From an uncultured delta proteobacterium (GTDB lineage: Bacteria > Desulfobacterota > Syntrophia > Syntrophales > UBA2185), in NCBI GenBank assembly GCA_963729715.1, contig CAVSPA010000004.1, positions 320,001-384,000 of the forward strand: a stretch of 64,000 nucleotides of DNA, read 5' to 3'. Under the pieces are notes generated by a model that was not told the origin of the DNA, made no database searches, and was given only the letters and a program-made list of their open reading frames with translations. Both the position numbers and the translations under genes were made by a program. Positions within the stretch are counted from its first letter, which is position 1, and every line of letters starts with the position of its first letter. Below, piece after piece: positions 47,719 through 59,491 of this stretch.

Positions 47719-48180
47719 CTATTTTTCGAATATTAATTCATCCTTGAGTTTAATACAACCGTTCACGCTCTGCGCAGCAGGACAGCGGGTGATATAGTTT
47801 GCGAAGCTCTCTTTGGCATCGGCCACCTTATCTTCGGGAACTTTCAGATGGTATTTGACACGGATAGTGGTGATCTTGAGTACGCCGTTGATATTCTCTA
47901 TGTCGCCTTCCACATCGGCCCAGTACAGACTTTCCGGCGTGGGAATCTTTTTTCCGGCCATCAACGTGGCCAGTGTGCCCATCATTCAACCGGCTGTCGC
48001 GGCAACGATGTGGTCGAGAGTCGCCGCATGCTCCTCTTCCGGCTGTATTTTGTAAAATTTCATGATGCCGCCGTGAACGCCGTAATAGACGGGTTCCGAG
48101 AATCCCTCTATCATGGCTCTTCTTGTCGGCCCTTTTTCCCTGACGATTTTAATTCTTGATGTGTGAACGACTTCTCCCAT
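47719..48180 (-). CDS. OsmC/Ohr-family protein, predicted selenoprotein (TGA 47986-47988)
   Basis: Two track ORFs join in frame: HIVAATAG-U-MMGTLA...CPAAQSV; AGGAGG RBS before ATG 48180. Confidence 0.85.
47954..47973 (-). promoter_or_regulatory. Putative bacterial SECIS
   Basis: CTGGCCA[CGTTGA]TGGCCGG; 19 nt between UGA and the loop. Confidence 0.7.
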
Positions 48181-48438
48181 ATCAGTCCTCCTTAACCTTT
48201 TTCTGTCTAATACCTCAACAGATTTGGTTTTACAACAAAATCCCATGTAGACACGCTTTTGACAAGCTAGGTTCATAACATTGGTTATATGCGAAGATGT
48301 GCACCGCGGTCTTGGCTGCTGATTTACCAATGCAGCAATCTTGTGAAAGGGTGGCGTGTGCAGCCAAGAACAGCTCTTGTGGTTTTGCCGATTTTGATGT
48401 ATAAAATGCCCCAGATTCTTTACGAGAGGACCATACAG

Positions 48439-55595: not shown

Positions 55596-55831
55596 TTTTC
55601 ACTTGGCTGGTTTCCACAGCTGTGCGAATATGTAGATCCACTTCATGAACAAGCTGATACTGTCTGATAACTGATCATTCTAACGTCTGACATCGAGTGA
55701 TGCTCACGAGAACGAGAGTTAACAAATATCCGGTGAACCTATAGTTCTTTATTCAGATCCTTTCCTCATTCACAAACACAAAGCAGCCTATCAATTCCAT
55801 TCTTTATGCGCGCAGGACTCAGCAGGTAATT

Positions 55832-56326
55832 ATGGCGCAGACAGAAGGCAGGAAACTCGACAGCGGTGACTTGTTTCCGCGGATGGAGATCCGGTTTACA
55901 GACGGCACCTCCATCCACGTTCCTGATATGCTTCAAGGCTCTTGGACTGTTTTGTTAGTCTACAGGGGAGCATAGTGACCTTTCTGTCGTCAGCAGTTAG
56001 CTGAATTTCAGTCACGCATTTCTGATTACGATAGTAGGGACATTAAGGTAATTGCGGCTTCAACGGACAGCCTCGAGAATGCCCAGAAATCCGTGGAGAG
56101 AAAAAAACTGACCTTCGCCATTGCCTATGGACTCGATGCCCGGGGATTTACCGCTGCGACAGGGGCCTTTTTTGATGAAGTAAAGGATTACATACATGCA
56201 GCAGGCTTCATCCTCCGACAGGACGGCATTATTAATGAAGCCGTATACAGTACCGGACCGATTGGCCGCTTCACTCCGGCGGACGCCCTCTTCATGATCG
56301 ACTACCGTTCCAAGAAACCTTCCTAA
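55832..56326 (+). CDS. AhpC/TSA peroxiredoxin-like protein with UxxC motif; in-frame TAG directly before the Sec TGA (pseudogene or double readthrough)
   Basis: LDSGDLFP...VLLVYRGA-TAG-TGA-PFCRQQL...VIAASTD, in frame with ORF 56093-56326. Confidence 0.8.
55990..56004 (+). promoter_or_regulatory. Putative bacterial SECIS
   Basis: TCAGC[AGTTA]GCTGA; 16 nt between UGA and the loop; extendable by CTG/CAG. Confidence 0.6.
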
Positions 56327-56333
56327 TCGGGAA

Positions 56334-56777
56334 ATGACAGCGGACAAATTAAAAGCGCGTATTCTCGTCTTTATACAATTAGCCTGTATAATTTTTATCT
56401 TTGCATCCGGCACTCCTGTGGCAAACCATTTTCTGCTGCTTCTTCTCCAGATGGCGGGAATAGCAACCGGTATCTGGGCGGTCGCCACCATGGGCATTGG
56501 CAATATGAATATCTCGCCGCTCGTGAGAGACGCGGCGGCGCTCGTGACGAAAGGGCCCTACCGACTCATCAGACACCCCATGTATCTGGCTGTATTGCTG
56601 GTTATCTGGCCGCTCATCATTGACAACTTTTCCTTGCTGCGCATCGCCGCAGGACTTATTCTCACCATCGATTTGATAGTAAAGATGCTGTTCGAAGAAC
56701 GCCTTCTGAAAGAACAGTTTGCGGAATACGAGCCCTACATGAAAACCACAAAAAGGTTCATCCCTCTCCTTTTCTAA
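56334..56777 (+). CDS. Isoprenylcysteine carboxyl methyltransferase-family membrane protein
   Basis: LVTKGPYRLIRHPMY, EERLL, RFIP. Confidence 0.9.
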   Translation: MTADKLKARILVFIQLACIIFIFASGTPVANHFLLLLLQMAGIATGIWAVATMGIGNMNISPLVRDAAALVTKGPYRLIRHPMYLAVLLVIWPLIIDNFSLLRIAAGLILTIDLIVKMLFEERLLKEQFAEYEPYMKTTKRFIPLLF

Positions 56778-56979: not shown

Positions 56980-59438
56980 ATGGACATGAAAACATTTGAA
57001 GTACCTGTGGAAAAGTTGCGCTGGCAGTGTGACCCGGCAATTTTTGACTTCGATTGCACGAATGATATGACCCCGTTGCGAGAGGTTATTGGACAGGACA
57101 GGACAGGGCCATCCGGGCCATACAGTTTGGCCTATCCATGGACCATGACGGCTACAATATTTTTGTCGCAGGCTTGACCGGGACAGGTAAGACCTCCATG
57201 ATTAAGACATACGTCGACCGACTTATCGCCAGTCGCGAGATAAGGCAAGGCTTCCATCCACACGACTGGGCCTATGTCTATAACTTCACGGATCCCGACC
57301 GTCCCCAGGCTATCAGCATGCCGCAAGGTGCCTGCAAGGAGTTTCGCAATAGAATTTTTAATCTGCTGAACCGCCTCAAGGAGGACCTGGCACGCGCTTT
57401 CTCCAGCGATCAGTATAAGAACAGCCACAAGAAGGTCATTGAAGATAGCCAGACAGAGCGGCAGCAGATACTCCAGGAAATCGGAGACGATACCCGCAAG
57501 CAGGGTTTTCTTCTCGAAATGACGCAGATGGGACCCGTCCTTGTCCCCCTCATCGATGGCCCTCCTATGGATAAGGCCGCATACATGAATCTCGATGAAT
57601 CTCTTCGGAGGGACCTTGATAAGCGACACGCCGAACTTCTGAAGAATGTGCAGACGACTTTCGAAAAGCTGCATGAGTTGCAGCATCATACCGTGCAAAA
57701 ACTGGCCGATGCCGATAAAGCCCTGGCGGATATGACCGTCACAAGGCTCTTCGATGCGCCTCTGGCTGATTACAAAGAACAACCCAAAATTATCCAGTAT
57801 CTGAATAATCTGAAGCAATACACCCTTGATAATCTTGATATCTTCAAGGGAGAAGAGGGAAAGGCGGCGACTCTCTTAGGCTTGCCCGGCAGCCAGATCA
57901 CGCAGGGCCGTGACCCTTATCTTCCGTTCCAGATCAATGTGTTCATTGATAACAGTGAAACCGAAGGGCCTCCCGTAATCACCGAGTCTAACCCCATCTA
58001 CCCTAACCTTTTCGGCAAGATGGAGCGAAGATTCCTTTTGGGCGGCTATCTCAGTGACCATACCATGCTGAAGCCGGGGGCAATCCATCGTGCGAACGGA
58101 GGCTACCTGCTTCTCAGCGCCGCTGAGGTTGTCACGAACATCGGCGTCTGGCCGGCACTGAAGCGCGCAATCCGTACCAAAGAAGTGGGAGTCGAGGATC
58201 CCTTTGAGCAATTCGGCTTGCTCGCTCCCCAGGGGATGAAGCCCGAGCCTATACCCATTGAAACCAAAATATTCCTCATCGGCGACCCCGTCATACATCA
58301 GTTGCTCGCGATGTACGATGACGAGTTTTGGGAACTCTTCCGAGTGAAAGCTGACTTTGACTATGAAGTGCAGAAAGCCAGGGACAACCTGATGGCCTTC
58401 GCCGCCTTCATTTCAGGTTGCTGCGAGGACTGCCAAATCCGCCACTTCGACCGCACGGGCGTGGCCAAGGTTATAGAATTTACATCGCGCATGGTGAGTG
58501 ATCAGCAGAAGCTGTCATCCCGTTTTTCCCAGATCCGGGAGCTCGTACTTGAGGCGGAACATTGGGCGCAGAAGGATGGCGCGGAACTGGTTGGCGCCAA
58601 GCATGTAGAGCAGGCTCTCGAGGAGCGACGCTTCCGTCATAACCTACCTGATGAACGGATCAAGGAAATGATGGAGCGCGGCACAATAATGATTGATACT
58701 GACGGCGACGTCGTCGGCCAGGTCAACGGATTAAGCGTCTACAGTCTCGGCGATGTCGCCTTCGGCAAACCATCGCGTATCACATGCCGCACCTTCCTCG
58801 GACGGCAGGGCATAATCAACATAGAACGCGAATCCCGGCTCAGCGGCCCGATTCACAATAAGGGCGTGTTAATACTGAACGGCTACGTGGGATCGAGATT
58901 CGCTCAGGATTTCCCGCTATCTCTTTCCGCGAGCCTCTGCTTTGAACAGTCATACGAAGGTGTCGAAGGTGACGGCGCTTCATCTACGGAGTTATATGCC
59001 CTGCTTTCGAGCCCGGCAGACGTGCCAATAGAACAACACATCGCGGTAACCGGTTCGGTGAACCAGAAGGGTGAGCTCCAGCCGATAGGCGCTGTCAATC
59101 AGAAGATCGAGGGCTTCATCGGCATCTGCAAGACAAAGGGACGCACCGGTCACCAGAGTGTGATGATACCAACCCGGAATCTAGATAATCTCATGCTGCG
59201 ACAGGAAGTCATTGATGCCGTCAAAGCCGGTCAATTCCACATCTGGGCCGTCAGCACTATAGATGAAGGAATTGAAATCCTGACCGGCATACCGATGGGA
59301 CGGCTTGTAGGCGGACCTTTCCCGGAGAATACGATAAGCTTCAGGGTGGACCGGACACTACGGCAGATGGGCATGAAGCTTAAGCAGTTTGGCGGCGCAG
59401 GCGTGGAGATGGCGGACGAGCAGAACAGGGACTCCTGA
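56980..59438 (+). pseudogene. LonC/LonB-like S16 protease, frameshifted
   Basis: N-terminus (LRWQCDP...IGQDR) out of frame by an extra GGACA unit at 57091-57105; GLTGTGKT, HRANGGYL; EGDGAS instead of EGDSAS. Confidence 0.85.
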
Positions 59439-59491
59439 TCTCTTTGGTCCAAGGGGAAAAGTTTGAAACACGGTTGTAACGGAGGCATTAT

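Follow-up and report, generated by a model that had tools for sequence, protein, structure and literature searches.

The gene at 55832-56326 on the forward strand of the window (the whole stretch of DNA analysed, 64,000 nucleotides from an uncultured delta proteobacterium) is very probably a nonsense pseudogene of recent origin from a known family of selenoproteins, the Prx-like UxxC proteins, in which a single G-to-A change at 55974 has turned the tryptophan codon TGG into TAG. Around the redox motif the frame reads TAC AGG GGA GCA TAG TGA CCT TTC TGT, with TAG at codon 48 (55973-55975), TGA at codon 49 (55976-55978), Cys52 (TGT, 55985-55987) intact as the second residue of UxxC, and the terminal TAA at 56324. 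These two codons are the sole internal stops in a frame that is otherwise open across 164 codons, as was recognized in a first-pass annotation of the sequence, which had read the motif as YRGA-TAG(55973)-TGA(55976)-PFC. That annotation had taken a nonsense change from TGG to TAG in a selenoprotein with UxxC as the simplest reading, and this reading has held up, since the related genomes carry TGG and the TAG, which is likely inactivating, is found in two further sequencing runs.

The read-through protein matches Pfam AhpC-TSA (PF00578) at 70.8 bits against a cut-off of 26, and its orthologs within the genus are 72-87% identical and syntenic. Its scores fall far under the cut-offs of the NCBIfam peroxiredoxin models (39 against 211 bits) and of PrxU (NF040737; 20 against 270 bits), and its best PDB match, to a true peroxiredoxin, is weak (E 2.4e-7). 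The Sec position aligns with Thr in the T-x-x-C motif of peroxiredoxins, not with the peroxidatic Cys; a true peroxiredoxin (PxxxTxxC/U) was therefore rejected in favor of a Prx-like UxxC oxidoreductase, and the earlier label 'peroxiredoxin-like' is right for the fold and wrong if taken to mean a true peroxiredoxin. According to the excerpts of two reviews, Prx-like UxxC/UxxU thiol:disulfide oxidoreductases (PF00578) are tabulated as a predicted selenoprotein family (PMC13188914, PMC9312934), and Prx-like selenoproteins are also counted in an excerpt of PMC1976440; placement in the subfamily of these reviews is by domain and motif, not by alignment to their representative accession. As the TAG at codon 48 closes the frame ahead of the Sec codon, the window copy is classed as a broken member of the family. 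In public protein sets (P0002-P0133), the family is regularly split at the Sec codon, leaving fragments of 44-48 residues named 'peroxiredoxin' or 'hypothetical'. An Rfam scan of the window returned no match, and a promoter scan remained at chance level.

The TGA at codon 49 likely encodes selenocysteine, judging from its conservation and from the selenium machinery of the genome. Both this TGA and Cys52 are present in 18 of 18 orthologs, in agreement with the earlier proposal that TGA occupies the first Cys of CPFC (UxxC) and TAG the Trp. Profile searches of the window's genome (G000) placed selA, selB, selD and tRNA-Sec all over their cut-offs; selD itself has an in-frame TGA, and the single tRNA-Sec has a UCA anticodon, the remaining RF01852 matches being ordinary tRNAs. 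An intact SECIS-like hairpin lies at 55990-56004 (+), with a 5-bp stem (55990-55994 paired with 56000-56004) and a 5-nt loop (55995-55999) located at +17 to +21 from the TGA, and it recurs in orthologs. Its stability is unremarkable in comparison with shuffled sequences (z of -1.0 for 52 nt and -1.3 for 60 nt), and RNAalifold gave no consensus structure over 132 family sequences. Of these 132 sequences, 84% can form a canonical closing pair, against 63% expected (C-G in 90 and G-C in 19), with the hairpin overlapping conserved codons, and three of the five stem pairs show two-sided change in 15 hand-picked sequences that give the same stem. The hairpin, called SECIS-like in the first-pass annotation, is probably the SECIS: its stem recurs with some covariation, but it shows neither excess stability nor a family-wide consensus.

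The Trp preceding the Sec, as judged from aligned homologs, is nearly invariant in the family. The codon pair is TGG-TGA in 17 related genomes and TAG-TGA in none of them, which leaves TAG private to G000 and Trp48 in 17 of 18 orthologs. A survey of the order (339 genomes) gave 90 family matches, of which 88 carry a single TGA and no more; the exceptions are G000 and its congener G010. A scan of the GTDB collection for the TAG-TGA pattern, which may omit the window's own and nearest genomes, gave 0 matches, while the same pattern relaxed to TRG gave at least 119 matches with TGG in every listed one (119/119). A 301-genome sample of another phylum contained TGG in 40 of 40 matches, one of them from an unpublished genome (G367). 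Moreover, with an N-terminal fragment profile that ended before the W, all 120 listed of 600 matches end in RGxW.

The selenoprotein gene looks dispensable in the genus, if its distribution among the sequenced members is a guide. Of the genus's 11 genomes, six have an intact copy and three a broken one, and in two (92% and 99% complete) none was found, the broken copies being those of G000 (TAG), G010 (two other TAGs) and G003 (frameshift). No close ortholog was found with the window gene as query in 11 genomes of the family's other genera, nor was a close compensating paralog found in G000. The private pN/pS of the G000 gene is 0.25 (0.12-0.50 in relatives), and its only other departures at conserved sites are T124A, which is shared with two relatives, and P130Q. 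This low level of decay outside codon 48, with UGA, Cys52 and hairpin preserved, would fit a young lesion and would equally fit a gene under selection. Seven nucleotides past the stop lies an open ICMT/PEMT-type methyltransferase gene (56334-56777, +), recognized by profile match and syntenic in relatives, which is likely on the same transcript. In addition, about 650 bases downstream of the selenoprotein gene, comparison with relatives revealed a Lon-like (AAA_32/LonC) gene (56980-59438, +) whose frame is shifted by duplication of 5 bp (GACAG) at 57092-57106; G005 and G008 have it intact, and in G002, G004 and G006 it is nearly all lost through deletion of the region corresponding to 57046-59472 of the window, which confirms the decaying Lon gene reported in the first-pass annotation.

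Internal stops were also counted genome-wide. Those confirmed against relatives comprise seven TAG, four TGA and one TAA, the window gene included, that is 11 distinct stops besides it, in a tally of 1331 G005 and 309 G002 orthologs whose sets partly overlap; the sequence compared amounts to 2.0 Mb of G005 (2.9 Mb in all) and some 0.4 Mb of G002. From codon usage, weighted with the substitution spectrum of the lineage, a TAG share of 47.5% is expected, and the 7 of 12 observed do not depart significantly from it (P=0.32). The other internal TAGs stand in place of Trp, Glu, Ser and Tyr codons. A first comparison had yielded five single-lesion genes that were all TAG, and this apparent excess was dropped after more orthologs, two single-lesion TGA genes among them, and the mutation-weighted expectation were brought in. 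A de novo split-gene scan counted 86 TAG, 145 TGA and 111 TAA, roughly proportional to stop usage; being noisy and having missed the window gene, it was used for leads alone. Nineteen of the 1331 orthologs appear frameshifted in G000, part of which may be assembly errors, and 65 of 1341 do so in G005 (L251-L350, a single contig), which suggests indel errors in that assembly.

Several loci met during this survey are recorded here in their own right. Two nearby genes at G000:C5:598888-602703, about 95% identical to relatives, carry GGA>TGA and TCG>TAG, respectively, and from their motifs they resemble methylmalonyl-CoA mutase subunits; a TAG gene within a few kilobases of the GGA>TGA gene is expected if the whole C5 locus is dead. 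Single nonsense codons interrupt conserved genes at C7:479765 (L232, Ser>TAG), C3:135946 (L242, Glu>TAG), C5:499699 (Trp>TAG) and C7:472492 (Ser>TAG). At C4:169808 (L231) there is a candidate TGA lesion in a sigma54-activator-like motif of G000. Within the window, on the reverse strand at 47719-48330, two abutting ORFs are joined by an in-frame TGA (...IVAATAG-TGA-MMGTL...) with both sides strongly coding, which presumably resembles an OsmC-like selenoprotein. As well, contigs C1 and C16 of G000 share duplicated sequence, and the tRNA called Ser(GCT) at G000:C16:17367-17439 measures just 73 nt, which leaves too little room for the customary long variable arm.

The window's TAG could in principle be an artifact or a codon that the cell reads, and both readings were weighed against the pseudogene. 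Logan contigs from runs of two different studies, X1 (record 3, 55830-56078) and X3 (record 9, 55876-56054), keep the TAG with 0 differing letters in a comparison with G000 within 1.5 kb; they extend more than 31 letters to either side of it, at a depth of about 3 each, and one run could share its source with the window. The TAG is present in the DNA of two runs besides the window assembly, which contradicts the sequencing error that had been offered as the other branch of the simplest reading. A sequencing or assembly error at 55974 would gain some credit from the apparent frameshift load of the G000 assembly (17/1027 and 2/304 orthologs) and from the fact that the evidence consists of contigs of other runs rather than the window's own raw reads, but both runs and the assembly would have to share one and the same error, and we regard this as extremely unlikely. 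The more exciting proposal of the first-pass annotation was adjacent recoding, with UAG read via pyrrolysine, an amber suppressor or a UAG-reading tRNA-Sec, followed by Sec at UGA. UAG-reading tRNA-Sec variants exist. No tRNA-Sec-like gene with a CUA anticodon was found in G000, where the sole tRNA-Sec is the UCA one, and a CUA anticodon was found neither among its 48 tRNAs nor by ARAGORN at -ps90 nor among the Rfam tRNA matches (at -ps80/70, ARAGORN returned more than 1600 junk matches and was uninformative). tRNA-Sec-like variants are described in an excerpt of PMC7609411, and Sec and Pyl systems occur together in some deltaproteobacteria according to excerpts of two sources (PMC1976440; bioRxiv 10.1101/2021.03.15.435355); furthermore, the G000 assembly is split into 19 contigs and may lack a tRNA gene. 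Against this, PylS (C-terminal), PylB and PylC reached 31, 67 and 32 bits, under cut-offs of 178, 348 and 248, in a search that covered these three proteins and in which, as a control, each profile passed its cut-off in 1 of 14 genomes; none of the genus's 11 genomes has a PylS match over the cut-off. RF1 is full-length with its PVT and GGQ motifs, and TAG terminates 759 of 3334 genes called with a simple gene caller (23%). Terminal stops of orthologs gave 56 TAG-TAG pairs and 19 TAG/TAA swaps against G002, and 122 and 79 against G005. TAG is an ordinary stop in G000, internal TAGs are not in excess, and no relative shares the TAG at codon 48. Pyrrolysine, an amber suppressor, a UAG-reading tRNA-Sec and TAG reassignment were accordingly rejected, the proposal having failed every test run, and dedicated double recoding is given next to no probability; in the portions of the literature that our search returned, no natural case of adjacent UAG/UGA recoding was found. 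As no UAG-reading machinery was found in the genome, the gene is likely an ordinary, recently broken one.

Two further groups of explanations grant the TAG a role without any dedicated decoding gene, and metagenome data bear on the first of them. A JGI metagenome scan with a pattern built for the TAG-TGA allele, over 241 million records, gave four matches. One (L046) is a chance match rather than a homolog, and the other three are homologs in two unrelated lineages, namely L043:1501-1527(-) with L044:1501-1527(+), which are 99.97% identical and form one lineage, and L045:1501-1527(-). Their frames are otherwise open to the contig limits, and the nearest fetched relatives of these lineages have TGG (L137 at 73% and L135 at 79% DNA identity). 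Together with the window gene, TAG-TGA at codons 48/49 thus stands in three independent lineages, all with the context TAG TGA CCT TTY, which is found at 6 of 128 TGG loci. It might be suggested from this that selection or mutation favors a TAG ahead of the Sec codon as an off-switch, for instance by sparing Sec-tRNA, and that it recurs over other nonsense changes. However, the pattern was made for exactly TAG-TGA and the metagenome collection gives neither a denominator nor a control count, the CCT link was observed post hoc, and any upstream stop would spare Sec just as well. A nonsense lesion is estimated for roughly 0.5-1% of copies (one among the 89 other matches in the order, and no convincing one in the 114 of the 119 listed GTDB loci that could be assessed), which, multiplied by 0.04 for the TGG>TAG route, gives a rough null of about one per 2,500-5,000 copies. 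This null agrees with the 0 found in GTDB beyond G000, and the metagenome recurrence roughly fits chance, so an off-switch is held to be quite unlikely. The same recurrence could also be taken for a UAG-UGA decoding device in at least three lineages, in which a SelB-SECIS complex or a leaky near-cognate tRNA would pass both codons of UAG-UGA-CCU-UUY and tune the selenoenzyme down without a suppressor gene; this we consider most improbable. A leaky but useful allele, in which near-cognate tRNAs would read UAG at a low basal level, Sec would follow at UGA, and a little enzyme would still matter, is unlikely as well. According to excerpts of the respective papers, read-through in Salmonella pseudogenes is most frequent at UAG (PMC9122581) and in-frame stops may persist under purifying selection (PMC7918605), and the remainder of the window gene looks unrelaxed in its pN/pS and conserved sites. 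The same excerpts also state that cytosine is the commonest base beside read-through stops (PMC9122581), the next base here being U, and that most such in-frame stops are assumed not to be functionally recoded (PMC7918605). Moreover, Trp48 is nearly invariant in the orthologs and fragments surveyed above, and two inefficient steps in series would yield very little product; because UAG read-through must be followed by Sec insertion at the very next codon, the full-length protein would be made only in trace amounts.

Under the preferred reading, a young nonsense pseudogene, the ancestral product would have been a thioredoxin-fold thiol:disulfide oxidoreductase with Sec49-x-x-Cys52, decoded by SelB bound to the hairpin just 3' of the UGA. 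The G-to-A change would then have turned the Trp codon ahead of the likely Sec codon into TAG, RF1 would terminate at the UAG one codon short of the UGA, and the UGA and its hairpin would rarely be reached. The expected product is a 47-residue fragment without the active site, one residue shorter than that which the intact gene would release upon failed Sec insertion, and translation restarting at GTG 56093 would yield 77 residues, again without the active site. That the genus can dispense with the gene is the likely reason for the allele's persistence. The window thus probably holds a further dead copy of a selenoprotein family that is known and widespread, and its lineage is in the course of losing several genes. 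The case also warns against reading double recoding into a TAG next to a Sec codon, even where the TAG is genuine and independently confirmed. If the recurrent UAG-UGA device were true, it would mean a natural protein made through two adjacent stops without Pyl or suppressor genes.

The closest parallels to adjacent recoding are the Olavius delta-1 symbiont and marine sediment lineages, which combine Sec and Pyl and resemble the window's organism as Sec-using anaerobes with in-frame UAG; according to excerpts of PMC1976440 and bioRxiv 10.1101/2021.03.15.435355, they possess pylT/S/B/C/D and place Pyl in methylamine methyltransferases, whereas PylS/B/C and a CUA tRNA were not found in G000. With the true peroxiredoxins (PxxxTxxC; Sec form PxxxTxxU/TxxU), the window gene shares the fold family, and the sequence matches are weak. 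With the Prx-like selenoproteins it has in common the PF00578 domain, the U-x-x-C motif, the downstream hairpin and a host carrying selA, selB, selD and tRNA-Sec, and it differs from them in having TAG at the Trp codon preceding the Sec. As in the young nonsense pseudogenes and 'pseudo-pseudogenes' described in excerpts of PMC9122581 and PMC7918605, a single in-frame stop interrupts a conserved gene; unlike in those, read-through of the window gene would also need Sec insertion directly after it.
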